From Candidatus Bipolaricaulota bacterium (GTDB taxonomy: Bacteria > Bipolaricaulota > Bipolaricaulia > Bipolaricaulales > Bipolaricaulaceae): 48,276 bases of DNA. Position numbers and translations under genes: made by a program. Shown piece after piece: positions 2,231 to 19,075 of the stretch (its first letter is position 1; each line of letters starts with the position of its first letter). The notes under the pieces are model-generated. The model was not told the origin of the DNA. It made no database searches and was given only the letters and a program-made list of their open reading frames with translations. Location of the stretch: the NCBI GenBank assembly GCA_037439765.1, contig JBBIVL010000002.1, positions 1 through 48,276 of the forward strand. The letters are read 5' to 3'.

Positions 2231-3203
2231 AGAGCCAACAGGCGGCCTGGTGATTTGTCGCCACTTCCTTCAAAGGCGGCATCTCCCGGGTACATACTTC
2301 CATCACATGGGGACAGCGGGGGTTGAACGGGCATCCAGGCGGCGCATCCAGCGGGTCCGGCACCACCCCCTTGATCGGGTCCAACCGCTTTTTCTTCGTG
2401 GCCAAAGAAGGGATGGAGTTGAGGAGGCCCTGGGTATAGGGGTGCTTGGGCTCGTGAAAGAGCGGGCGCACCAATGCATGTTCCACCACCTTCCCTAAGT
2501 ACATTACCACCACCTCTTGGCACATCTCCGCCACCACCCCCAGGTTGTGGGTGATGAACATGATGGCCATCTTAAAGCGTTGTTGGAGATCGCGCATGAG
2601 GTCCAAAACCTGCGCCTGGATGGTCACATCCAAGGCGGTGGTGGGCTCGTCGGCGATGAGGAGGGAGGGGTTGCAGGAGAGGGCCATGGCGATCATCGCC
2701 CGCTGGCGCATGCCTCCGGAAAGCTGATGGGGATACTCATCCACCCGTTGCTCGGGCTCAGGAATGCCCACCTGCCGCAGCATCTCAATGGCCTTCTTGC
2801 GCGCCTCTTTTTTGGAAACCTTCTGGTGGAGCATGATCGCTTCCATGATCTGATAGCCCACGGTGAACACGGGATTCAAAGAAGTCATGGGCTCCTGGAA
2901 GATCATGGCGATCTCTTTTCCTCGGATGGAGCGGTACTCCTTGCCCTTGGGGTGGAGGGTGGTGAGGTCCACAGTGCGGCCGTCGCGATGCAAGAAGATG
3001 TGGCCACCCGCGATCTTCCCGGGCGGCATGGGCACGAGCCCCATGACGGAGAGAGCGGTCACGGATTTCCCACAGCCGGACTCGCCCACGACTCCCAAAG
3101 TCTGTTGGGGCTCGATGCGGTAGCTCACGCCATCCACGGCTTTGACCACCCCATCCTCGGTGTAGAAGTGTGTCCGCAGGTCTTGCACCTCTAAGAGCGG
3201 CAC
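2223..3203 (-). CDS. oppD: Oligopeptide/dipeptide-type ABC transporter ATP-binding protein (OppD/DppD-like)
   Basis: Walker A 'GESGCGKSV', signature '[15 protein letters not shown]', Walker B '[12 protein letters not shown]', C-terminal '[11 protein letters not shown]'. GTG start with GGAGG 5-6 nt upstream. Confidence 0.85.
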
Positions 3204-3522: not shown

Positions 3523-5122
3523 GGCCATGTTGGCCAAGTACGTGTTTGTCACGGGCGGCGTGGTTTCGGGCCTGGGAAAGGGCGTGGTCACGGCTTCCCT
3601 GGGTTGCCTTTTGCAGGCCCGGGGAGTTCGGGTCACCCTGCAAAAAATTGACCCCTACCTGAACGTGGATGCCGGGACCATCAATCCCTACGAACATGGG
3701 GAGGTGTTCGTCACCCAGGATGGCCTGGAAACGGACCTGGATATCGGACACTACGAGCGTTTTCTTGGTCAGGACCTGAGCCGAGCCAATTACCTTACCA
3801 CAGGCCAAGTGTATTGGTCGGTGATCCAGAAGGAGCGCCGGGGCGATTACCTTGGTCGCACGGTGCAGGTGATCCCCCATGTGACCGAGGAGATCAAGGC
3901 CCGTATCCGCGGCGCTTTGGAAGCTACAAGAAGCGAACTCGTAGTGGTAGAGGTAGGGGGAACGGTAGGCGATATCGAGGGTCTGCCCTATCTTGAGGCC
4001 ATCCGCCAGATGCGCGACGAGCTCGCCCGGGAGGACGTGGCCGTGATCCACCTCGCCTACGTCCCCATCCTTTCCACCACCGGCGAGCTAAAAACTAAAC
4101 CCACTCAGCACTCCGTGAAGGAACTCCGGGCCGCCGGGATACAACCGGACTTCATCGTGGCCCGCTGCCCCATCCCCCTTCCCGATTCCCTGCGTCGGAA
4201 AATCGCGCTTTTCTGCGACGTTCCCGTGGATCACGTGATCGAGGACCGGGATCTACCCTCCCTTTATGAAGTTCCCCTCTGCTTGGCCGAAGAGGCACTG
4301 GATCGAAAGCTTCTCCAGCGGCTCGATGTGCCTTCCCAAGATGGGGACCTCCAGGCGTGGCGCGATTTCGTCCAGCGGCTGCAGAATCCCGAGACAACGG
4401 TGCGGATTGGGATCGTTGGGAAATACGTGGAGCTACACGACGCCTACTTGTCCATTGTCGAGGCCCTCCAGCATGCCGGGGCAGCGCTGCGGAGCCGCGT
4501 GGAGATCCAGTGGATTCCCGCCGAGCGGGTGGAGAAGGAGGGGGAGGGAGTGTTGGCCAGCGTGCAAGGGGTGCTTGTGCCCGGCGGGTTTGGCGAGCGG
4601 GGGATTGAAGGCAAAATCGTGGCTGCCGATTACGCGCGCCGCCGGGGTATCCCCTTCTTCGGCATCTGTTTGGGGATGCAGGTAGCGGCCATCGCCTTCG
4701 CTCGCTCAGTCCTGAACAGAAAAAATGCCAACTCCACGGAGTTCGATCCCCACACCCCGGATCCCGTGATCCACCTTCTGCCGGAACAGATGCAGATCCA
4801 GGAAAAAGGCGGAACCATGAGGTTGGGAGGCTATCCGGCAGATCTTCCGCCTGGGACGAAGACGCAGGCTGCCTACCAGGCTACCCGCGTCCATGAGCGC
4901 CATCGCCACCGGTACGAGTTCAACTCCCGTTATCTGGAGCCCTTTGCCCGGGCCGGGTTCGTAGCTTCGGCGTTGTCCCCGGACGGAAGGCTGGTGGAGG
5001 CCCTCGAGCTTCGGGATCACCCCTGGTACGTGGCCGTGCAATTCCATCCGGAGTTTCGCTCTCGACCGCTTCGTCCCCACCCCCTGTTTGTCGCGTTTGT
5101 GCGCGCATGTGGCTCCTCCTGA
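3521..5122 (+). CDS. pyrG: CTP synthase
   Basis: 'KYVFVTGGVVSGLGKG' N-terminus, glutamine amidotransferase 'FFGICLGMQ' and 'HRHRYEFN'. Full-length similarity pattern to PyrG. The start is ambiguous among ATG 3521, ATG 3527 and TTG 3530; the GTG 3470 extension was rejected. Confidence 0.93.
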   Translation: MAMLAKYVFVTGGVVSGLGKGVVTASLGCLLQARGVRVTLQKIDPYLNVDAGTINPYEHGEVFVTQDGLETDLDIGHYERFLGQDLSRANYLTTGQVYWSVIQKERRGDYLGRTVQVIPHVTEEIKARIRGALEATRSELVVVEVGGTVGDIEGLPYLEAIRQMRDELAREDVAVIHLAYVPILSTTGELKTKPTQHSVKELRAAGIQPDFIVARCPIPLPDSLRRKIALFCDVPVDHVIEDRDLPSLYEVPLCLAEEALDRKLLQRLDVPSQDGDLQAWRDFVQRLQNPETTVRIGIVGKYVELHDAYLSIVEALQHAGAALRSRVEIQWIPAERVEKEGEGVLASVQGVLVPGGFGERGIEGKIVAADYARRRGIPFFGICLGMQVAAIAFARSVLNRKNANSTEFDPHTPDPVIHLLPEQMQIQEKGGTMRLGGYPADLPPGTKTQAAYQATRVHERHRHRYEFNSRYLEPFARAGFVASALSPDGRLVEALELRDHPWYVAVQFHPEFRSRPLRPHPLFVAFVRACGSS

Positions 5123-5709: not shown

Positions 5710-6409
5710 GGGGAGGAACCTGACCAAGCGGTTCCGCCACATCCGCGCGGTGGATGGGCTTTCCTTGCGTTTTCACAGCGGGGAAATCACCGGCCTTCTG
5801 GGGCCCAATGGCGCAGGAAAAACGACCACCCTCTACCTTTTGGCAGGGTTCTTGCGGCCCAATCGCGGGGAAATTTTCTTCTCCGGTCGACGGGTCACGC
5901 ACCTTCCCTTCTACCGCCGAGCGCGTCTGGGCATTCATTACCTTCCTCAGGAGCCCTCGGTGTTCCTGCGCACCACGGTGGCCGGGAACATTCGCCTGGC
6001 CCTGAGCGGCATGGGGCTACGTTGGGGGTCTCAGGTTCTGGGCGTGCTTGCTGACCTGGCCCTCGAGGAGCTCTTGGGACGCCGGGTCACGGAGCTCTCC
6101 GCGGGTGAGCGGCGAAAAGTGGAGGTGGCCCGGGCCCTCGTCACGCGGCCCGCCTTTTTGCTCCTGGATGAGCCGTTCCTAGGGGTGGACCCCCTTACTG
6201 TGGCCGAGCTCTCGACCTTGGTACGCAAGCTCGCTCAAAGCGGCATCGGCCTCGTCATCTGCGATCACAATGTGCGCGATACGCTGCGCCTGGTGGACCG
6301 GGCTCATCTCATCCAGGCGGGAAAAACCGTGGTGGAAGGCACTCCTGCGGAAATTGTGGCCAACCCCCAGGCCCGCGCCCTCTACCTCGGGGAAAATTTT
6401 TCTTTGTAG
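5693..6409 (+). CDS. lptB: LPS export ABC transporter ATP-binding protein LptB
   Basis: 238 aa with Walker A 'GLLGPNGAGKTT', signature 'LSAGERRKVEVARAL', Walker B 'LLLDEPFLGVDP' and C-terminal 'NPQARALYLGENF', typical of LptB. TTG start. Confidence 0.85.
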   Translation: MSAVLEGRNLTKRFRHIRAVDGLSLRFHSGEITGLLGPNGAGKTTTLYLLAGFLRPNRGEIFFSGRRVTHLPFYRRARLGIHYLPQEPSVFLRTTVAGNIRLALSGMGLRWGSQVLGVLADLALEELLGRRVTELSAGERRKVEVARALVTRPAFLLLDEPFLGVDPLTVAELSTLVRKLAQSGIGLVICDHNVRDTLRLVDRAHLIQAGKTVVEGTPAEIVANPQARALYLGENFSL

Positions 6410-10976: not shown

Positions 10977-11810
10977 ATGCGCCACATTCTTCTTGGGGTA
11001 GGCATGGCCCTGGTCTTTATGACCGGGGCCGGGGCGGACGCAGGAAGCCTCCTGGCCCAAGCCGAGGCCCTGTACGACCGCTGGCAGGGGGAGTTCGATT
11101 TCGCGGCTTACCAGGCTCGACTGGAGGAGGCCATTCAGCTTTGGGAGGAAGCGCTACCTCAGCTTGCGGGGCCTGTGGAAAGGCAGGCGGTTTTGGTGCG
11201 GCTCTCGCGGGCCTGGTTCGAGCTCGCTGAGGGGTATTTAGCGGAAAAAACCGAGCGGGAGAAGGCTTACGCTAAAGGGAAGGACTATGCGCTGGAGGCG
11301 TTGCGGATTGATCCCGCTTTCCGCGAGAAAGAAAGGCAAAGCTTTCGTTTAGCGCTGCGGGAAAGCTCGGATGTGGAGGCTCTTTTTTGGTACGGGAATA
11401 ACCTCGGTCGCTGGTTGGGTTTTCACTACTGGGAGGCGTTGACCGGGGGCACGCGGGATGTGTTGGCGGCATTCGAACGATGTGTGGAACTCGATGAGGC
11501 CTATTGGGGCGGGGGTCCCCGGCGGGCGTTGGCCAATTTCCTGGCCCAGACCCCCGGGTTTTTGGGCGGGGATTTTTCCCGGGCGGAAAGGGAGTTTCGC
11601 CGGGCCTTAGAGATTGCCCCGGAATTCCTCCAGAACTACGTGGATTATGCGGAGCACTGGGCCAAACCTGCGGGGAAGATGGAGCTGTTCTGCCAGCTTC
11701 TCCGGGAAGTTTGGGCCCGGGCCAAGGATCCGGAAGTTTTTCGGTCCTGGCCGTTGTACAACCTGTCGGCCCTGCGGCGAGCGGGGGAGTTGATGCGGGG
11801 TTGCGGGTGA
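10977..11810 (+). CDS. TPR-like secreted/lipoprotein, TatT-family-like
   Basis: 277 aa with a signal-like N-terminus and an all-helical repeat body. The block 'LANFLAQTPGFLGGDFSRAEREFRRALEIAP' resembles TRAP-T-associated TatT family proteins. GGAGGAGG SD upstream. Confidence 0.55.
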   Translation: MRHILLGVGMALVFMTGAGADAGSLLAQAEALYDRWQGEFDFAAYQARLEEAIQLWEEALPQLAGPVERQAVLVRLSRAWFELAEGYLAEKTEREKAYAKGKDYALEALRIDPAFREKERQSFRLALRESSDVEALFWYGNNLGRWLGFHYWEALTGGTRDVLAAFERCVELDEAYWGGGPRRALANFLAQTPGFLGGDFSRAEREFRRALEIAPEFLQNYVDYAEHWAKPAGKMELFCQLLREVWARAKDPEVFRSWPLYNLSALRRAGELMRGCG

Positions 11811-11830
11811 TTTCCACCGCTTTACCTCAC

Positions 11831-11858
11831 TTGACACCCTCTTCACCTAGGATATAGT
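11831..11858 (+). promoter_or_regulatory. Near-consensus sigma70 promoter (TTGACA-N16-TATAGT) for the riboswitch-controlled operon
   Basis: -35 TTGACA at 11831-11836 and -10 TATAGT at 11853-11858, 21 nt after the stop of the upstream gene. The predicted TSS near 11865 lies about 55 nt before aptamer 1. Confidence 0.6.
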
Positions 11859-11883
11859 GGAAGCGCTTGGGCGAGGTCCAGGC

Positions 11884-12005
11884 AAAGGGGGTGAAGGAGC
11901 AGCCTAAGTTCGGAAGACCGTCCTGGCCTTCCGATAAAGGCAAACCCGTCGCAAGGCGGGGGCGCAAAGCTGCAGGTCCCTCGGGGATGGCTGGGCTGCC
12001 GAAGA
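11884..12005 (+). repeat. Duplicated leader, copy A (paralogous to 12470-12590)
   Basis: Begins AAAGGGGGTGA, as does copy B. The 74-nt core 11931-12004 matches 12513-12586 at 69/74 positions by hand alignment. Confidence 0.85.
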
Positions 12006-12014
12006 ATGGCCAGG
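11922..12014 (+). promoter_or_regulatory. c-di-GMP-I (GEMM-I) riboswitch, copy 1
   Basis: Contains AAGGCAAACC, then hairpin CCCGUC[GCAA]GGCGGG, then GGCGCAAAGC, then a second hairpin (GCU-G-CAG-GUCCC[UCG]GGGAU-GG-CUG-GGC), then UGCCGAAG. This is the same block order as the V. cholerae Vc2 aptamer. The proposed closing helix CCUGGCC-UUC (11922-11931) / GAA (12001-12003) + GGCCAGG (12008-12014) spans the ATG at 12006. Confidence 0.8.
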
Positions 12015-12470
12015 AAGTGGGTAGTGGGAGTGATGATGGCTGCGGTAGGCCTCTCCGGGCCGGGGATGAGCGTATCCCGAAGCGTAAGTGTTTCCCTTTC
12101 CATCCCTGCGCTAAGTGTTCTTTCCCTGCCCGAGCAAGGCCTCACCGGGCGCGAGATCCCGGTGGAGGTGAACCTCCCGGATCTTTCGCCCCAGGGCCTT
12201 CTCATCCCCCTGGAGGTGAAGAGCAACGTTCCGTGGGCGGTTACGGCGCAGATCCTCGCTGAGGAACGCGCTGGACTCGTGGTTCAAGTTCTGGAGGGCC
12301 CGGAGGTTTTGGTGACCACAGAAGAAGTTCCCATCCTCACGGGCCGACCTGGGAAGTACGAGGTCCTCTTGCTTGTAAAATTGGCCGACCAGGCCCCCCT
12401 TACAGGGCAATGGACCCTTGTGCTTAGGGTGGCGGGCGGGGAAGGCGAAGGTGCCCGTCGCGCGGGGTGA
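12006..12470 (+). CDS. Secreted small subunit-like protein (paralog of the 12657 and 13238 subunit domains)
   Basis: 154 aa with signal peptide 'MARKWVVGVMMAAVGLSG'. 'LEVKSNVPWAVTAQI' and 'GQWTLVLRV' align with 'VSVWSNRTWTLSVAA' and 'GDYSLGFTYTL' of the next gene. It lies directly after riboswitch 1. Confidence 0.6.
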   Translation: MARKWVVGVMMAAVGLSGPGMSVSRSVSVSLSIPALSVLSLPEQGLTGREIPVEVNLPDLSPQGLLIPLEVKSNVPWAVTAQILAEERAGLVVQVLEGPEVLVTTEEVPILTGRPGKYEVLLLVKLADQAPLTGQWTLVLRVAGGEGEGARRAG

Positions 12471-12590
12471 AAGGGGGTGAGAGCCAAGCGAAAACGAGGA
12501 AATTCGGGGTGACCGATAAGGGCAAACCCGTCGTAAGGCGGGGGCGCAAAGCCACAGGTCCCTCAGGGATGGCTGGGCTGCCGAAGCACC
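12470..12590 (+). repeat. Duplicated leader, copy B (paralogous to 11884-12005)
   Basis: Same AAAGGGGGTGA start and same aptamer core as copy A (69/74 identical in the core). Confidence 0.85.
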
Positions 12591-12592
12591 CC
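12506..12592 (+). promoter_or_regulatory. c-di-GMP-I (GEMM-I) riboswitch, copy 2
   Basis: Contains AGGGCAAACC, then CCCGUC[GUAA]GGCGGG, then GGCGCAAAGC, then GCC-A-CAG-GUCCC[UCA]GGGAU-GG-CUG-GGC, then UGCCGAAG. Proposed closing helix GGGGUG (12506-12511) / CACCCC (12587-12592). Confidence 0.8.
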
Positions 12593-12651
12593 AAGAGAAG
12601 CAAAAACTCCCGGGTAAGAGGCCCGGTAAACAAAAACTTCTCTTGGAGGTG
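12591..12651 (+). promoter_or_regulatory. Putative expression-platform hairpin overlapping the SD of the 12657 gene
   Basis: CCAAGAGAAG (12591-12600) pairs perfectly with CUUCUCUUGG (12637-12646). The 3' arm runs into the SD GGAGGUG (12645-12651), 7 nt before ATG 12657. There is an inner hairpin CCGGG/CCCGG (12610-12626). The 5' arm overlaps the aptamer's closing-helix 3' strand by 2 nt. Confidence 0.5.
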
Positions 12652-12656
12652 CACAA

Positions 12657-13175
12657 ATGCGGAGCTTGAAAGTTTTGGCGGTTTTGGTGGCTGGAGTTAT
12701 GGGCGTGGTGAGCGGGATGGCTCAAACGAGCGTGACGGCGAATTCTACGGCGGTTTTCACGGTGCCGACCCTAATTCGGCTCCAGGTCAACGTGGCCACC
12801 ATCGACTTTGGGGCTCTGACCATGAACGACTACGATCTGGGGTATAAGGACGCCCTTGGGGCTCAAATCGTCTCCGTGTGGAGCAACCGCACGTGGACCC
12901 TGTCCGTGGCCGCGGATAGTGCCACCTGGACGGGGCCGTGGGCGAAGCCCGCAAGCGATCTGCAGCTTCGTGTTGCGTCCGTGAACAAACCGGAGCGCGT
13001 TACGGACTACCTGGGGACCCTCACGGGCCTCACCACCGTTGGGTTCGTCATTGCTGAGGGTTTGCCGGCCGGGAACATCCAGCACACCATGGACTTCCGA
13101 GTCCTGGTGGACTGGGATAACGACGTGGCCGGCGACTATTCGCTCGGCTTCACCTACACCCTCACCGCGCCGTGA
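12657..13175 (+). CDS. Secreted beta-rich fibre/pilin-like subunit (probable major subunit; WxL-like motif layout)
   Basis: 172 aa with signal peptide 'MRSLKVLAVLVAGVMGVVSGMAQ' and a strong SD. Clear paralogy to the C-terminal domain of the next gene (IDFGALT..DYDLGY...AQIVSV.S..TWTLSVAA...FRVLVDWD...GDYSLGFTYTLTAP). Confidence 0.85.
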   Translation: MRSLKVLAVLVAGVMGVVSGMAQTSVTANSTAVFTVPTLIRLQVNVATIDFGALTMNDYDLGYKDALGAQIVSVWSNRTWTLSVAADSATWTGPWAKPASDLQLRVASVNKPERVTDYLGTLTGLTTVGFVIAEGLPAGNIQHTMDFRVLVDWDNDVAGDYSLGFTYTLTAP

Positions 13176-13188
13176 CCCAGTATAGGTT

Positions 13189-13234
13189 GGGCAGCCCGGT
13201 TCCCCAAAAGAGCCGGGCTGCCCCTAACTTTTCT
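13189..13234 (+). terminator. Intrinsic-terminator-like hairpin (possible partial terminator/attenuator) after the major subunit gene
   Basis: Perfect 11-bp GC-rich stem GGGCAGCCCGG (13189-13199) / CCGGGCUGCCC (13213-13223) with a 13-nt loop, followed by CUAACUUUUCU (weak U tract). It starts 14 nt after the stop at 13175. Confidence 0.55.
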
Positions 13235-13237
13235 CCC

Positions 13238-14170
13238 ATGGGGAAATTCATGGTTTCTGCTCTTTTGGGACTGGTCCTCCTGGCCCTCCCCCTTTGGGCC
13301 CAGGATACGGGCTGGCGTAACCCCTCCCAGGACTTCGGCGAATTCGCCTTCGGGTGGCGGGCTTATTCCGACGACAACCAAAGCGCGATCGTTTTGAACC
13401 TTTGGGAGGTGATCTTCCATGATTATTGGGGGTATGGAATTAATCTGCCCCCTGGGACACGTGTGACGGGGATTGAGGTTCGCCTGGATGCTTGGCATTG
13501 GCGGTTGGGATGGGAGTTAGAATCCTATTTGTGGACGGAACTTTCCTGGGATGGGGGCGCGACCTGGACGTCCACAGGCTACGGCACAGGCCGTCTGCCC
13601 CTCTCCCAAACCACTTTCATTTTGGGAGGCCCCTCCGATCTTTGGGGAAGGACGGAGTGGCGTCTGGAGGAGCTCAGCGACCCAAACTTTCGTGTGCGCG
13701 TGTTTGGGATTGGTTCAGCCCGGCTGGACTGGGTGGCTGTGCGCGTTTACTACAGCACCGGCCTTGCCCTGGAAATCGAGCCCAGGACCGTGAATTTGGG
13801 CACGCTGAGTTTTGCTGACTACGACCAAGGTTTCTCGGAAAGACTGGAAGCGCAAATTATAGGGGTCACAAGCCCTGCCACCTGGACTCTGTACGTGGCC
13901 GCCCTGCAGGCGAGCTGGAGCTACGCCGGGGACCTCCCCAATCCCCAAAAGCCGTGTTCTCACTTACTTTGGCGCGTAGAGTATGCCGACGGCGCAGTGA
14001 CCGATTCCGCGCAAACGTTCACCCCGCTTTCCACCCTGGATCGCCTGGTGGCCCGAGGCAGCATCGGCCAGGCCAAACTCACCCTGAGCTTTCGGCTCCT
14101 CGTGGACTACGAAACCACGGTCCCCGGCACCTACACCCTGGACTTCCGCTACACCCTGGTAACCCCCTAG
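13238..14170 (+). CDS. Two-domain secreted protein: N-terminal Trp-rich beta domain plus C-terminal subunit domain (adhesin-like)
   Basis: Signal peptide 'MGKFMVSALLGLVLLALPLWAQD' from ATG 13238. The C-terminal ~138 aa are paralogous to the 12657 product (VNLGTLSFADYDQGF...AQIIGVTSPATWTLYVAA...FRLLVDYE...GTYTLDFRYTLVTP). The N-domain (13304-13753) has no recognised family. Confidence 0.8.
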   Translation: MGKFMVSALLGLVLLALPLWAQDTGWRNPSQDFGEFAFGWRAYSDDNQSAIVLNLWEVIFHDYWGYGINLPPGTRVTGIEVRLDAWHWRLGWELESYLWTELSWDGGATWTSTGYGTGRLPLSQTTFILGGPSDLWGRTEWRLEELSDPNFRVRVFGIGSARLDWVAVRVYYSTGLALEIEPRTVNLGTLSFADYDQGFSERLEAQIIGVTSPATWTLYVAALQASWSYAGDLPNPQKPCSHLLWRVEYADGAVTDSAQTFTPLSTLDRLVARGSIGQAKLTLSFRLLVDYETTVPGTYTLDFRYTLVTP

Positions 14171-14211
14171 TCCTTGGGAAGCCCCGCTTCTTTCCGTAAC
14201 ATTCCCTGGCC

Positions 14212-15210
14212 ATGCGTCGCTTTTTCCTCTTAGGACTCGGAATCCTTGGCGTCTTTGGCGCGGCGTTTGAGGTGAACCTCCTTGAGGTGGACCTCCAGGC
14301 CCGGCCAGGCATAGCCCTCTCCTTCTCCTTCATCGTCCGCAATGAGCTAGCCAGGAGCGAGCAGATCACCCTCTATCTTGGGGACTGGGACCGGGATGAG
14401 TTCGGCGAGAACCGGTTTTACGAGCCTGGGACTCTGGCGCGCTCCGCGTCCCTTTGGACTACGGTGGCGCCCACGGCCTTCGTGTTGAACCCGGGGGAGG
14501 TCCGGGAAATCCAAGGTATTGTGCAAATCCCAGCGGACGTCGAACCTGGCTCGTACTGGACCATCGTGTTCGTGCAGGGCGAGCCCCGCCTGGTCCCTTA
14601 CCAAGGGGTGATGGTCACCGTCACCCGCCGGATTGGGATCAAGGTCTACGTTACGGTGGAGCCGACCGAAGCGGCCGGGGAGCTCCTGGATGTGGAGATC
14701 CGCGGCCAGAATCCCCTTTGGATTTGGGTGAAATTCGCCAACACTGGGACGAGAAACCTGCGGGAAATTAAGGCCACTCTCCGGGTGATCGACGTGCAAG
14801 GGAAGACGGTGGCGGAGGGAAGCGCTTCGCCCGTCCCTTGCCTTCCCGGTGGGGAGCGGTGGATCCGCGTGGACACGGATTTCCGGCCCACACCTGGGGT
14901 TTATCAGGTCCTGGCCACTGTAGATTACGGTGGGGAAGCGATTTTGGCCATGCCCGTGCGCCTGGTCCTCCGGCCTCTTTCCCTCTTCCCCCTCGAAGAG
15001 GGGCTGGCTGTTCCCCAAGACCTGGACGGCGATGGGTTCCACGAGGATCTCAACGGCGACGGGGTCTTTGACGAGGCCGATCTCGAAATTTTCGCCCGAA
15101 ACCTCGCTCACCCGGTGGTACGGGCCAACCTGCGGGCCTTCGATTTCAATAACGACGGCGCCCTCGACGAGGGGGATCTTGGCGTCCTCCGCGGGCTCCT
15201 CAGTGGGTAG
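14212..15210 (+). CDS. Secreted protein with two tandem Ig-like beta-sandwich domains (PapD-like/DUF916-DUF3324-like) and a C-terminal dockerin-like module
   Basis: Signal peptide 'MRRFFLLGLGILGVFGAA'. Two ~110-aa beta-rich domains. The C-terminus carries two Ca-binding-type repeats, 'DLNGDGVFDEADLEIFARNL' and 'DFNNDGALDEGDLGVLRGLL' (15013-15201). Confidence 0.8.
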   Translation: MRRFFLLGLGILGVFGAAFEVNLLEVDLQARPGIALSFSFIVRNELARSEQITLYLGDWDRDEFGENRFYEPGTLARSASLWTTVAPTAFVLNPGEVREIQGIVQIPADVEPGSYWTIVFVQGEPRLVPYQGVMVTVTRRIGIKVYVTVEPTEAAGELLDVEIRGQNPLWIWVKFANTGTRNLREIKATLRVIDVQGKTVAEGSASPVPCLPGGERWIRVDTDFRPTPGVYQVLATVDYGGEAILAMPVRLVLRPLSLFPLEEGLAVPQDLDGDGFHEDLNGDGVFDEADLEIFARNLAHPVVRANLRAFDFNNDGALDEGDLGVLRGLLSG

Positions 15211-15260
15211 GGGCCAAAGTTCCGTAATCTGGGTTACCAAACTCCCCTCCTTCGAAAGGC

Positions 15261-15296
15261 TGCGGCCGCAAAATTTGTGGGATGCGGCCGCTTTTT
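15261..15296 (+). promoter_or_regulatory. Hairpin formed by two GCGGCCGC palindromes that encloses the start codon of the 953-aa gene
   Basis: GCGGCCGCA (15262-15270) pairs with UGCGGCCGC (15283-15291) to give 9 bp, followed by UUUUU (15292-15296). ATG 15282-15284 sits at the loop/stem junction, and no SD is visible upstream. Confidence 0.45.
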
Positions 15297-18143
15297 GCCC
15301 TAGTTTTTTGGGGCGTCCTTGCCCTGAGCCAGGACCTCGAAATCGCCCGCCTTTCCCCACCCGTCAAAGTTCGCCCAGGCGATTTCGCGATCCAGGTTTT
15401 GGAAATCGCAAACCGCACCCCGGCCGCGATCCTGGCCCACCTGAGCGTGGGACTTCCCCAAGGTTGGGAAGCCTTGGGGCTTCCGGAAACACTCTCCCTT
15501 GAGGCAGGCCAAGTGGATTACGTTTTCCTCACCCTCTACGTGCCCCGCACGGCGCCCAGCGGCGTTCACCCGGTGCGCCTCGTTTTGCGCTGGAACGGAA
15601 AGGAGCTTGTTGCGGAAACCCTAGTAGAAGTGGAGACGGTAGCAGCTTTGGAACTCCTTGCCCCATCCCCTCAGGCAGCAGCCCCCGGGGAATCCGTGAC
15701 CTTTGTGCTGCGCGTGGGGAACCGGGGCAACGCCCTGGACCGCGTGGCCCTGGAAGTGCGCCCTCCTTCGGGCTGGAGGGTAAGCCTGAGTCCCACGGAG
15801 ATGCCCCTGTCCCCAGGTGAGGTCGGGGAAGCCCGGGCCAGTCTGGAGATCCCTGAGGATGCGCGGGTGGGCCGGGAGGTGGTCCTGGCCGTGGCCCGCT
15901 CCACCGTTTCCCCCGAGGTGGAAGCCCGCACGGCCTGGTACGTGGAAGTCTTGCCGCCGGGGCCGGAACAAGTGCCGGTGCAGAAATTTGCGGAGCTTTC
16001 CATGCAGGGTCTTGGTCGCCTGTCCCACGAGTTTTTGGCCAAAAGCGGGAGCTCCTTCCTCGGTTTTTCTGGCCGGGGCACGGTGTTTGAGGGAGCGTTG
16101 GAGCTTTCCGCGCGGTGGGCCGGCCCTTGGGCCCCCAAGCCCCTGCAATTCTTGGACTTCCAGGCCACCTACGTCACGGACTCCCTGGAGATGGAGGTCG
16201 GCCAGGTGGGGTTATCCTTCGACTCGCTCCTGTCCTCCCTGGGCTTTTGGGGCCTGGGAACGCAGCTCACCCTGGAACCCCTGAGGCTTTCTTTTGGCTC
16301 CGGCTGGGCCAGGACCGTGGGGCGCACCGGGGGAAAATGGCTTTTGCGTTCTTCCTGGGGTGAAGTGGGAGGGGCCTACCGCGAGGAGCGCGGGGACGAT
16401 TTTCACAGCCGTGGCGGCGTGAGTTGGCTTGGCCTGCAGCCCTTCGAGGGCCTGCGGTTTCGCCTGGAGGCGGGGGCAGCCCAGGTGCAAGGCCTCACCC
16501 GCTTCGCCGGGCAAATGAGCCTCACCTGGGAAATTCCCGAACTTTTCTTCCTGGAAGCCCGGACGTATGCCATCGATCCTGGTTTTCCCGCGTTGGTACG
16601 AGACCGGGCTGGCGCGCTCCTCTCCGGCCGCCTGGGTGCCGAGGAAGCGGGGTTCCGCTTTGTGTGCGACTGGCAGCGGGATAACCTGCGTGGCCTTGCC
16701 CTGTCCACCCGTGGCTGGTACGGAATCCAAGCGGGTTGGGACCTGTTCCCCACGGAATGGCCCCTGCGTTTCGGTTTTGCTCTGGCCCTGCGACGTACGG
16801 CGGACCTGGGCCTCCCGTCCGTTTGGGACGAACGGACGGCGCGAGCCGAGGCTCACGCCGTGTTTTCCCACCAGGGCTTTACTTTGGGCCTCCAAGAGGC
16901 CTACACGCGCTCCGAGGACGTGGCCTCGGAGCAAACCTGGACGCGCCAGGAATTTCGAGAATGGCTGGACCTTCGCGTTTCCCCCGCCGTTTCCTTAAGC
17001 GGGGAATTTCGCCAAACGTTGCTTGTTTCCCCAGAGGAAACCCTTACCCAAAGCGAGGCCACTTTTTCTTTAGCCGTAGTGGACCGATTACGGCTGACTT
17101 GGGAATACAGCCGGGAGGGCGGGCTTGCCCGCGGGGAATTTTCGTTTTCCCCGGCGCTTCCTCTTACCTTGAAGCTTGGGGCCGAGATCCGCTGGGGCGA
17201 GGAGGGCACCCCTACTCGGTTCTCGGGAACCTTGGAGTTCCTCTACTCTTTTTCCTGGGCTCCCCCGTTTTTGCCCGTGTATGGCCTCCTTTCCGGAGAA
17301 GTTTTTGCTGATCTGGACGGTGATGGTCTGCGGGGACCCCACGAGCCCGGCGTCGCCGGGGCTACCCTTGTCCTCGACGATCTCCTCGTCTCCTCCGGGA
17401 AAACTGGGGAATTCCGCTTCCCTGGCCAGCCCCCCGGGGATTACACGTTGCGCCTCGTTCGCCTTCCGCCCAAGTACGGTACGCCGATTCAGGAGTTTCC
17501 TGTGGCCCTAGAGCTCGGGAAAACCACGAAAATACTCATTCCGGTGTTGCCCTTGGCGGAGATTCGGGGAGTGGTGTTCCTCGATGCTGACGCAGATGGG
17601 AATTGGGGAGCTGGGGAGCTGGGCTTGGGCCGAGTCTACGTGCGTCTGGTCTCAGAAACTGGCCAATTGGTGGAGGTATTTTCTGATCCGGCGGGGCGGT
17701 TCGGGTGGGCCGAATTCCTGCCCGGCAAGTATCGAGCGGAGCTCATCTTGGAATCCCTGCCACCGCGACATGACCCTACTACGCCCACGTCCCTGGAACT
17801 TGTGTTGGCGCCGGGCGAGAGGCGGGACGTGATTTTTGGGGTGCGGGAGCGGCCAAGACCGGTGGTGGTGATCCAACCTCCCTTGGCGGAGTTCGTCTGG
17901 ACACCCAGCAGGCCCAAAGCCGGCGAGGCGGTCCTCTTCGATGGTACACTTTCCCAGGCGTTTGACACGGCGGAAATCGTGCGCTACGCCTGGGACTTCA
18001 ACGATGATGGGCGGATCGATGTTGAAGGCCCCCGCGCCACCTGGAGCTTCCCCGAGCCCGGTTTTTACCTGGTGACCTTGATCGTCACCGATTCGGCCGG
18101 CCTCACCGGCCAAACCCAGTACCTCCTGCAAGTCCAGCCCTGA
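15282..18143 (+). CDS. Large multidomain secreted/outer-membrane protein (2x NEW3/CARDB-like, central beta-barrel-like region, 2x SdrD-B/CarboxypepD_reg-like, PKD)
   Basis: 953 aa with signal peptide 'MRPLFALVFWGVLALSQ'. 'GESVTFVLRVGNRGN...PPSGWRV...PGEVGEARASLEIPEDARVG' is NEW3-like. Residues ~235-660 show amphipathic beta-strand periodicity and end in 'LEFLYSFSW'. 'GEVFADLDGDG...GEFRFPGQPPGDYTL' and 'GVVFLDADADGNWG...GRFGWAEFLPGKY' are SdrD-B-like. 'YAWDFNDDG...FYLVTLIVTDSAGL' is PKD. Confidence 0.85.
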   Translation: MRPLFALVFWGVLALSQDLEIARLSPPVKVRPGDFAIQVLEIANRTPAAILAHLSVGLPQGWEALGLPETLSLEAGQVDYVFLTLYVPRTAPSGVHPVRLVLRWNGKELVAETLVEVETVAALELLAPSPQAAAPGESVTFVLRVGNRGNALDRVALEVRPPSGWRVSLSPTEMPLSPGEVGEARASLEIPEDARVGREVVLAVARSTVSPEVEARTAWYVEVLPPGPEQVPVQKFAELSMQGLGRLSHEFLAKSGSSFLGFSGRGTVFEGALELSARWAGPWAPKPLQFLDFQATYVTDSLEMEVGQVGLSFDSLLSSLGFWGLGTQLTLEPLRLSFGSGWARTVGRTGGKWLLRSSWGEVGGAYREERGDDFHSRGGVSWLGLQPFEGLRFRLEAGAAQVQGLTRFAGQMSLTWEIPELFFLEARTYAIDPGFPALVRDRAGALLSGRLGAEEAGFRFVCDWQRDNLRGLALSTRGWYGIQAGWDLFPTEWPLRFGFALALRRTADLGLPSVWDERTARAEAHAVFSHQGFTLGLQEAYTRSEDVASEQTWTRQEFREWLDLRVSPAVSLSGEFRQTLLVSPEETLTQSEATFSLAVVDRLRLTWEYSREGGLARGEFSFSPALPLTLKLGAEIRWGEEGTPTRFSGTLEFLYSFSWAPPFLPVYGLLSGEVFADLDGDGLRGPHEPGVAGATLVLDDLLVSSGKTGEFRFPGQPPGDYTLRLVRLPPKYGTPIQEFPVALELGKTTKILIPVLPLAEIRGVVFLDADADGNWGAGELGLGRVYVRLVSETGQLVEVFSDPAGRFGWAEFLPGKYRAELILESLPPRHDPTTPTSLELVLAPGERRDVIFGVRERPRPVVVIQPPLAEFVWTPSRPKAGEAVLFDGTLSQAFDTAEIVRYAWDFNDDGRIDVEGPRATWSFPEPGFYLVTLIVTDSAGLTGQTQYLLQVQP

Positions 18144-18154
18144 ATTAGCCAGGG

Positions 18155-19075
18155 CTATCCGTGGCCGCCCAACAGGCGTACCAACAGGCCTTTTTGGGCG
18201 TGAAGACGATTCTCCGCCTGATCAAAAATGACGGAGTTCTTGCTCCGTGCAGCCTCGTAGGTGATCTCCTCCCCATAATGAGCGGGAAGGCAGTGCATAA
18301 CCAGGACATCGGGCTTGGCCCGGGAAAGAAGGGCAAGATCCACGGTGTAGCCCTGGAATTTCTTGCGCCGAAGCTCGGCCTCGGCCTCCTGGCCCATGCT
18401 CGTCCAAACGTCGGTGTAAATCACGTCCGCGTCCTTGGCCGCCTCCTTGGGATCGCGAAGAATTTCCACCTTGGCTCCCAAGGCCCGCGCTTCCGCGACG
18501 ATGCGGGCATCGGGCTCATGGCCCTCCGGGCAGGCGATGCGAAAATGCATCCCAAATTTCCCGGAAGCCTCGATGAGGGAGTTTGCCACGTTGTTTCCGT
18601 CCCCAATGAACACCAGGGTTAGACCCTCAAGCTTCCTTTTCTTCTCCCAAATGGTGAGCACATCGGCCAGGGCTTGGCAGGGGTGGAGGAGGTCGGAAAG
18701 GCCGTTGATCACGGGGACAGTGGCGAAGCGGGCCAACTCCTCCACCACCTCGTGGCCGAACACGCGGGCCATGATGCCGTCCACGTAGCGGGAGAGGTTC
18801 AAGGCCACATCTTCCACGCTTTCCCGGTGGCCAAGCTTGATGTCCTCGGGGCCAAGATAGAGGGCGTACCCGCCGAGCTGCCACATCCCCACCTCAAACG
18901 ACACCCGCGTCCGAAGGGAAGGTTTTTGAAAAATCAGGCCCAGGGTTTTGCCGCGCAGGAGATGATCGGGGCGAAGGCCAGCACGGTGTTCCCGCTTGAG
19001 GTGTACGGAAAGCTCCAGGACTTCCCAGAGCTCCTCCCTCGACCAATCGGCAAAGCTTACGAAATCGCGTTTCAT
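18155..19075 (-). CDS. argF: Ornithine carbamoyltransferase
   Basis: 306 aa with 'SLRTRVSFE', 'HPCQALAD', 'DVWTSMGQE' and '[10 protein letters not shown]' OTCase motifs. GGAGG SD upstream. Confidence 0.92.

Follow-up and report, generated by a model that had tools for sequence, protein, structure and literature searches.

We analyzed a 48,276-nucleotide (nt) stretch of DNA from a Candidatus Bipolaricaulota bacterium (NCBI GenBank assembly GCA_037439765.1, contig JBBIVL010000002.1, positions 1 to 48,276 of the forward strand), hereafter called the window. Our subject is an operon on the + strand in which each of the first two genes, orfA and orfB, is preceded by an RNA element resembling a riboswitch for cyclic dimeric guanosine monophosphate (c-di-GMP). 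The first element (RS1) spans positions 11930-12004 and is followed by orfA (12006-12470), encoding a predicted secreted β-sandwich protein of 154 amino acids (aa) with a signal peptide. The second element (RS2) spans positions 12512-12586 and is followed by orfB (12657-13175), encoding a protein of 172 aa, also with a signal peptide, and by three further genes, orfC, orfD, and orfE. RS2 lies between two open reading frames (ORFs), i.e., it is intercistronic, as a first-pass annotation made from the sequence alone had stated.

Two c-di-GMP-I-class aptamers ahead of successive cistrons

The whole window was compared with the Rfam models by cmscan, with gathering scores of 59 for RF03167 (c-di-GMP-I-GGC) and 35 for RF01051 (c-di-GMP-I). 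Exactly two matches at or above the gathering score were detected, both full-length and both on the + strand, and these corresponded to RS1 (RF03167, 70.9 bits, E 6.8e-15) and RS2 (RF03167, 73.3 bits, E 1.3e-15), values well outside what chance would give. Two lower-scoring overlapping matches from the same clan (CL00126), presumably RF01051, also reached their own gathering score. The covariance models agreed with the claim of the first-pass annotation that a GEMM-I aptamer, i.e., one of the c-di-GMP-I class, stands ahead of each of the first two cistrons. Its expectation for c-di-GMP-II (RF01786) was borne out as well, since no match to this model was found in the window at the gathering threshold, nor at E ≤ 10 in 11600-12900, where a permissive Rfam scan added noise only.

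A scan of species-representative genomes yielded 22 related loci. The RS1-orfA-RS2-orfB layout was found in all 19 related loci that retain the upstream DNA, down to 55% orfB identity, and the truncated contigs carrying orfB (L006, L019, and L020) keep RS2. The synteny of orfA to orfE was kept in all related loci, and L022 corresponds to an orfC homologue only, with no aptamer match. The fold was examined on an alignment of 42 aptamers, with 22 helix pairs and 880 pair cells. The three-way junction of helices P1, P1b, and P1c was paired in 99.8% of these cells, and compensatory double changes were observed at 10 of the 22 helix pairs, a value that none of 500 shuffles reached. Control structures slid by 1-3 columns were just 33-44% paired. 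This covariation over 42 aptamers is the real support for the aptamer fold, and it is almost certain that both elements are genuine c-di-GMP-I-class aptamers.

One related locus, L021, carries a third aptamer of this class at 2600-2674 (64.1 bits), ahead of a gene for a 107-aa protein (2718-3041). For this protein, a weak ribbon-helix-helix match was obtained, and its two LGEILV-type repeats resemble, in our own impression, the N-terminal domain of MshE/GspE ATPases; it is a possible c-di-GMP-regulated regulator.

When the 74-nt segments of the two window copies were compared, 69 of the 74 positions were identical, and the five differences, mapped onto the model structure, fell where the first-pass annotation had placed them: a junction purine 5' of the equivalent of G20 of the Vc2 aptamer (A/G), position 2 of the GNRA tetraloop (C/U), a U.G versus a C-G pair, a bulged purine in P1c (G/A), and the apical loop (G/A). 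That annotation had further read these structure-neutral changes as a sign of selection on the fold. This argument is weak, because the near-identity stems from concerted evolution, and the five differences therefore say little alone. Within a genome, the identity between RS1 and RS2 was 92-98.7% in the window and L001-L005, 62-67% in L007 and L008, and 67-79% in the deeper clade L009-L021. In the first of these groups, lineage-specific substitutions were common to both copies of a genome (columns 33, 34, 39, 40, and 94 of alignment A3 were examined): P1b reads GGAGCAAUCC in both copies of L002 and GCCGCAAGGC in both copies of L001, and both window copies carry U at column 94. This pattern is one of concerted evolution, i.e., gene conversion, of an old duplication. 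In this same sub-clade, the expression platforms of the two copies stay different.

Expression platforms of RS2 and RS1

Three sequence strands, here a, b, and c, were found around RS2 in 22 of 22 loci. Strand a, a mimic of the Shine-Dalgarno (SD) sequence, lies immediately 5' of the aptamer (12506-12511, + strand) and reads GGGGUG in the window and GAGGUG in the deeper clade. Strand b, the anti-SD strand CACCCCAAGAGAAG (12587-12600, + strand), lies immediately 3' of the aptamer; it starts with CACCCC at 12587-12592 (CRCCUC elsewhere) and continues as AAGAGAAG. Strand c, CUUCUCUUGGAGGUG (12637-12651, + strand), contains the orfB SD sequence, GGAGGUG, at 12645-12651, and the orfB AUG is located 5 nt downstream of it. 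Strand b can serve either as the 3' strand of an outer P1 or as the SD sequestrator. In the former case, a:b pairing lengthens P1 by six pairs, with -12.7 kcal/mol in the window (12506-12511 with 12587-12592) and -9 to -13 kcal/mol across loci. In the latter, b:c pairing generates an 11-15-bp hairpin that buries the orfB SD, with -22.4 kcal/mol in the window (12587-12600 with 12637-12651) and -18 to -24 kcal/mol across loci. The b:c hairpin is the minimum free energy (MFE) fold when no constraint is applied, with the SD sequestered.

The b:c helix was present in 22 of 22 loci, with covariation in its distal part. The a:b helix also covaries across the 22 loci, with G-C in 10, A-U in 11, and G.U in one, and as this occurs while the SD stays constant, selection on a:b itself is indicated. 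In the absence of ligand, CACCCCAAGAGAAG would pair with CUUCUCUUGGAGGUG, and the orfB SD would be buried; with c-di-GMP bound, the SD-mimic would hold CACCCC in the outer P1, the SD would be freed, and orfB would be translated. Because the ligand-stabilized P1 consumes the anti-SD, c-di-GMP should free the SD, and these mutually exclusive, covarying helices make RS2 a probable translational ON switch, a reading of which we are reasonably confident.

The platform of RS1 is centered on the orfA start codon (AUG or GUG), which begins 2 nt past the last aptamer nucleotide in 19 of 19 loci. The 5' strand of its outer P1, CCUGGCCU (11922-11929, + strand), pairs with A 12005 and, from the G of the AUG through the next six nt, with 12008-12014; the 3' strand (12005-12014, + strand) includes the orfA AUG (12006-12008) and the next two codons. 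Across loci, the start-codon G and the next 4-6 nt are paired in this helix. Compensatory changes were found at two of its pairs (U-A in 10 and G-C in nine; G-C in nine and A-U in nine), and RNAalifold predicted the helix unguided. The orfA N-termini (MARKW..., MVRK..., MFRI...) are proper signal peptides only with this start.

Further upstream, the sequence GCAGCCUA (11899-11906, + strand) is complementary to the 3' strand of the aptamer at 11992-11999 (UGGGCUGC), a target that includes the C92 equivalent and the first P1 pair. In this anti-aptamer element, GGCARC is conserved in 19 of 19 RS1 leaders, an exact 6-nt complement is present in 15 of them versus 0.05 expected per leader, and one position covaries with the aptamer (G-C in 11, A-U in six, and G.U in two). 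The anti-aptamer fold is the MFE structure in eight of the 19 leaders and lies within about 5 kcal/mol of it in nine of the other 11. Its pairing is topologically exclusive with the outer P1, and such an element was found in RS1 and not in RS2. In the presence of ligand, the aptamer and outer P1 of RS1 would be stabilized and the orfA start codon occluded; without it, 11899-11906 would pair with 11992-11999, breaking the aptamer and P1 and releasing the start codon. On balance, this pairing logic leads us to lean toward RS1 acting as an OFF switch.

The GGCUGC or GGUUG(U) motif of the aptamer often recurs as a second copy in orfA codons 5-7 (12036-12041 in the window), and was found at +14 to +20 past the aptamer in L001-L003, L007, L011, L012, and L015-L018. 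The anti-aptamer element could pair with this motif and, in the folded state of the aptamer, thereby hold the start region closed. We also considered a split ribosome-binding site, in which the upstream SD-like block would, in the ligand-free fold, be brought beside the orfA AUG across the anti-aptamer helix. This candidate was rejected, since the spacing would amount to 11 nt or more in addition to the end of the helix, and orfC to orfE likewise have no SD.

Transcript, switching model, and alternatives

A sigma-70-like promoter, TTGACA-16 nt-TATAGT, was found upstream of RS1 at 11831-11858 (+ strand), with 11 of 12 consensus matches, and no other promoter-like site was detected when 11500-18400 was scanned. 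Boxes of the TTGACA/TATAAT type occupy the equivalent place in related loci. ViennaRNA predicted a 5'-proximal leader hairpin at 11865-11883 (+ strand), and a GC-rich hairpin is located at the same leader position in related loci. It is followed by an SD-like block, AAAGGGGGUGA, at 11884-11894 (+ strand), and an SD-like block stands ahead of RS1 in 19 of 19 loci; a second block, at 12470-12480 (+ strand), overlaps the end of the orfA stop codon by its first base and has counterparts upstream of RS2 in the related loci. In every locus, the distance from a block of this kind (AAAGGGGGUGA or GGAGGUG) to the aptamer that follows is 25-60 nt, for RS1 and RS2 alike. The first-pass annotation had extended the duplicated unit by about 45 nt further 5'. 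This was correct for AAAGGGGGTGA, found at both 11884-11894 and 12470-12480, and not for the 30-odd nt from the block to each aptamer, which are otherwise dissimilar between the copies.

No start codon suitably placed for a leader peptide was found after the SD-like blocks. As a conjecture, they might be a ribosome standby site or an mRNA stabilizer of the STAB-SD type, the SD-like element that Agaisse and Lereclus reportedly described in 1996. The likeness, a resemblance only, consists in a strong SD-like AAAGGGGGUGA that lies within a long 5' leader and has no start codon near it; unlike STAB-SD, the block in the window also precedes the internal RS2. As no terminator-like hairpin was detected in the interval between orfA and RS2, and the only promoter-like site lies upstream of RS1, we infer that orfA, RS2, and orfB are co-transcribed in one mRNA.

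Taken together, the two platforms suggest a model in which both riboswitches are carried on one mRNA started at the promoter at 11831-11858, each with its own translational platform, and in which high c-di-GMP would shift the output from orfA to orfB. The first-pass annotation had proposed separate control of the two cistrons; each does have an expression platform of its own, and the predicted signs are opposite, not merely separate. The identity of the aptamers, their covariation, a layout kept across loci, and the competing pairings are established; we infer the ligand, the direction of switching, co-transcription, and the biological role. As a whole, the model with one mRNA, RS2 as an ON switch, and RS1 as an OFF switch is the one we favor by a modest degree, and a predicted fiber subunit encoded by orfB would fit the usual link of c-di-GMP to adhesion or pili.

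Several observations weigh against this model. When equilibrium accessibility was calculated with the inner P1 pairs enforced or forbidden, no difference was found at the orfA AUG or the orfB SD, although this constraint acts on the inner P1 pairs only and leaves the ligand-stabilized outer P1 outside the model, and hence the comparison is uninformative. In the same kind of folding, the outer P1 of RS1 formed whether the inner P1 pairs were allowed or not, and the sequestering hairpin of RS2 persisted even with these pairs enforced. With no switching at equilibrium, the switch would be kinetic, or would need the energy of the ligand and tertiary contacts. In addition, orfA has no SD, as is the case for orfC, orfD, and orfE; the gene caller picked a start 10 codons downstream in the window, and the start codon used here was assigned from signal-peptide logic and its conserved position. 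In roughly half of the loci, the upstream element has a further complement within orfA codons 5-7, and its role may be more complex than that of an anti-aptamer. Promoter-like sites ahead of RS2 in two relatives (L010 and L014) suggest that co-transcription is not universal. Finally, no GGDEF, EAL, or PilZ gene was found among the 30 window ORFs scanned, so that production of c-di-GMP by the organism is not established.

The leading alternative is that both riboswitches work in the same direction (ON) and gate each cistron separately, with RS1 activating orfA through a mechanism invisible in the sequence, for example ligand-dependent mRNA stabilization or a delivery of ribosomes by the SD-like block upstream. 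The two aptamers are nearly identical in the window, and the most distant relatives share the promoter/SD-like leader module ahead of both copies, suggesting a duplicated unit with originally identical function. Co-induction of all fiber components would also be the simplest biological expectation, and equilibrium folding gave no ligand-dependent change at the orfA start. However, RS1 and RS2 differ at every locus in how their platforms are constructed, the 3' strand of P1 being the start codon in RS1 and the anti-SD in RS2; the anti-aptamer element belongs to RS1 and not to RS2; and no structure sequestering the orfA start solely in the absence of ligand was found. We regard a common ON sign as rather unlikely.

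A second alternative disputes only the single mRNA and is compatible with the switching mechanisms given above. It proposes that RS2 heads an orfB transcript of its own, generated from a separate promoter or by processing, in which case both would be ordinary riboswitches in the 5' untranslated regions of neighboring transcription units. In L010, a promoter-like TTGACG-17-TATAAT (about 4870-4905) and, in L014, a promoter-like TGTATAAT (about 5795-5810) precede the SD-like block upstream of RS2, which suggests that the ancestral duplicated unit consisted of promoter, leader, aptamer, and gene; in some genomes, orfB may have its own transcript. In line with this, the RS1 leader has an SD-like block close to its predicted 5' end, and a matching block comes before RS2. 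In the window and its sub-clade, however, the orfA stop abuts the SD-like block, leaving no intergenic room for a promoter, and the lone promoter-like site at 11831-11858, with no terminator-like hairpin between orfA and RS2, again supports the single mRNA of the favored model. A separate orfB transcript is thus improbable here.

The next alternative concerns the ligand. The window aptamers resemble Vc2 (Vibrio cholerae, RF01051) in the P1 three-helix junction, in P1c, and in P1b, which ends, as in type 1 GEMM-I aptamers, in a GNRA tetraloop (GCAA or GUAA in the window copies, G[CUG][AG]A across the 42 aptamers), and they contain the core blocks GGCAAACC, GACGCAAAGC, and UGCCGAA; the difference is that their P1c is short. 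The first-pass annotation had assigned both to RF01051. The class was right, given the clan match and the canonical contact nucleotides; the top-scoring model was instead RF03167, for both window copies and most orthologues, and RF01051 ranked first for the orthologous RS2 of L014 and L016 (65 and 62 bits). The consensus lines (...GACGCAAAgCc...GcUgCCgaa for RF01051 and ...GACGCGAAgCc...GcUGCcgaag for RF03167) differ in their core only in the base right after GACGC, the equivalent of Vc2 A47, where the parent class has A and the variant has G. The GGC variant is said to have been defined by Weinberg et al. in PNAS in 2017, and the "GGC" of its name presumably refers to the nucleotides at G20, A47, and C92, our comparison having covered the consensus lines only. 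Both window copies read GGCGC-A-AAGC; they share the overall architecture and length of RF03167 and pass its score threshold, yet the distinguishing G is absent from both, A being present at this position in 42 of 42 aptamers. The top rank of RF03167 is probably due to the shorter P1c, as a model of 80 positions suits compact aptamers slightly better than one of 87.

The nucleotides G20, A47, and C92 of Vc2 have been highlighted for ligand recognition (PMC11218506). Their equivalents, i.e., the G before the GC of GGCAAACC, the A right after (G/A)CGC, and the C in UGCCGAA, are canonical in the two window copies and throughout the 42 aptamers. The A at the A47 position, with G20 and C92 kept, indicated a canonical c-di-GMP-I pocket despite the top score of RF03167, and the ligand of both RNAs would be c-di-GMP. 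It could be argued that the aptamers work as the RF03167 variant, as their top scores would have it, or as the GEMM-Ib type that binds cyclic GMP-AMP (cGAMP), all the more because the window copies differ at the junction purine beside the ligand pocket. A G20A change of the cGAMP type was indeed considered as the difference between RS1 and RS2 (11938 versus 12520), and it was rejected, since the A/G site is the neighboring position, 5' of G20. The G20 equivalent is G, not the A of GEMM-Ib, in 42 of 42 aptamers, the A after GACGC is equally invariant, and the two orthologous RS2 copies that score best with RF01051 point the same way, so that a ligand other than c-di-GMP is very improbable. Nothing but the repetition itself speaks for duplicates in decay, or for a dispersed repeat with no regulatory function. 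This reading has practically no chance of being correct, as both copies are conserved with compensatory changes over 19-22 genomes, and each is tied to a conserved, covarying platform.

Gene products, related systems, and biological meaning

No family for orfA, orfB, or orfC was found in Pfam or NCBIfam. The orfA product is kept in 19 loci, where it has a length of 143-166 aa and a signal peptide, and its AlphaFold2 model (predicted local distance difference test score, pLDDT, 73) gave no PDB match at E ≤ 1e-3. The orfB family contains 73 homologues, and all those with a source name belong to Candidatus Bipolaricaulota/Acetothermia. Among the related loci, L002, L008, and L019 come from metagenome-assembled genomes labelled Thermotogaceae or Thermotoga sp. 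that carry the Bipolaricaulota-type operon, probably by misclassification of the bins. The AlphaFold model of orfB (pLDDT 81.5, low confidence in the N-terminal 28 residues) had its best PDB matches with the environmental TLP-1a/b fibrils (PDB 9ikk and 9ikj; E 3e-5, TM-score 0.54), followed by CfaB, PapA, Caf1, Csu, archaeal bundling pili, and cannulae, with E values of about 3e-3 to 4e-2 for many chaperone-usher pilins. TLP-1a/b, chaperone-usher pilins, archaeal bundling pili, and cannulae polymerize by donor-strand exchange (PMC11494351). The predicted orfB product resembles them in its Ig-like β-sandwich and, in the model, in a disordered N-terminal strand after the signal peptide; it differs in that TM-scores are at most 0.54 and sequence identity is about 14%. 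On this predicted fold, orfB is a candidate donor-strand-exchange fiber subunit.

The only strong SD (GGAGGUG) of the operon is that of orfB; orfA, orfC, orfD, and orfE have no obvious one, and their starts follow pyrimidine-rich or neutral leaders, which suggests low, SD-independent translation of all operon genes but the major subunit. A 14-bp GC-rich hairpin with a T-rich tail is found after orfB (13189-13223, + strand), as a putative attenuator or 3' stabilizer, and its sequence (GGGCAGCCCGG...CCGGGCUGCCC) is kept in nearly all related loci. The fold predicted for orfB, its strong SD, and this hairpin make it the probable major fiber subunit, in agreement with one half of the earlier proposal of a minor and a major subunit; a minor role for orfA is not established. 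The two genes are not established as paralogues either, since BLASTP returned nothing and hhalign gave a probability of 9.8%, for the N-terminal strand only. The 5' arm of the hairpin carries the RS1 anti-aptamer sequence GGCAGCC, and it finds a complement in the 3' strand (CUGGGCUGCC) of RS1 and RS2 alike, which may be a coincidence or a long-range interaction.

The next gene, orfC (13238-14170, + strand), encodes a protein with a signal peptide, and its start is the ATG at 13238, past the hairpin, not the GTG at 13172. It is partly orfB-like: by tblastn, orfC matched the orfB gene of L015, and orfB matched the orfC gene of L022, and the operon thus encodes at least two related fiber-type proteins. 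The orfD product (14212-15210, + strand) has a C-terminal dockerin/EF-hand-like calcium-binding segment, and that of orfE (15282-18143, + strand; 953 aa) has NEW3, PKD, and SdrD-B-like domains and a weak "choice-of-anchor T" match. From these domains, both might be adhesin-like partners of the fiber. No chaperone or usher gene was recognized in the operon.

The c-di-GMP-I class is the commonest among tandem riboswitches, with 347 doublets and 12 triplets, including one triplet in Bacillus thuringiensis (PMC9481103). As in such systems, several aptamers of the same class and with the same ligand would be carried on one transcript. In tandem c-di-GMP-I systems, however, all aptamers lie in one 5' untranslated region (UTR), ahead of one ORF, and act in the same direction, whereas here a 154-codon ORF separates the aptamers, which precede different cistrons and have opposite predicted signs; in all 19 loci, the intervening ORF has 143-166 codons and encodes a signal peptide, so that the two aptamers do not share a UTR. 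The survey dropped pairs more than 300 nt apart (PMC9481103), and the RS1-orfA-RS2 layout would therefore have been filtered out. The nearest published layout is that of Desulfobacca acetoxidans, a cluster of seven riboswitches within 7 kb whose groups have ORFs between them (PMC9481103), where c-di-GMP-I-class aptamers likewise stand before successive, possibly pili-linked genes. It differs in that its members are terminator switches combined with adenosylcobalamin riboswitches, are all predicted to be ON, and include one that senses cGAMP.

In Clostridioides difficile, the Cd1 riboswitch is an OFF switch for flagella and a c-di-GMP-II riboswitch is an ON switch for pilA1. The likeness is that a single second messenger acts through two riboswitches of opposite sign, so that one surface structure is repressed and another induced; the switches of C. 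difficile belong to different classes and operons and are transcriptional, whereas both of ours are of class I and are predicted to act translationally on one mRNA.

We found no literature on riboswitches in Bipolaricaulota/Acetothermia, and none on c-di-GMP in this group. As c-di-GMP-I riboswitches and tandem copies are well known, there is nothing unusual in the aptamers themselves. What distinguishes this operon is one riboswitch per cistron on an apparent single mRNA, in every related locus examined with upstream DNA (19 of 19). If the copies are indeed of opposite sign, they would constitute a compact switch between two secreted proteins, or a control of their ratio, with one signal. The fullest version, in which one messenger sets the stoichiometry of two secreted proteins on one mRNA through copies of opposite sign, homogenized by gene conversion in one sub-clade, for an undescribed donor-strand-exchange fiber, is a tentative one to which we give somewhat less than even credence. 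The combination of concerted aptamers and divergent platforms is a natural experiment on interchangeable riboswitch parts. For an uncultured candidate phylum, this locus offers a first regulatory handle and a functional hint, i.e., a surface fiber and c-di-GMP signaling.

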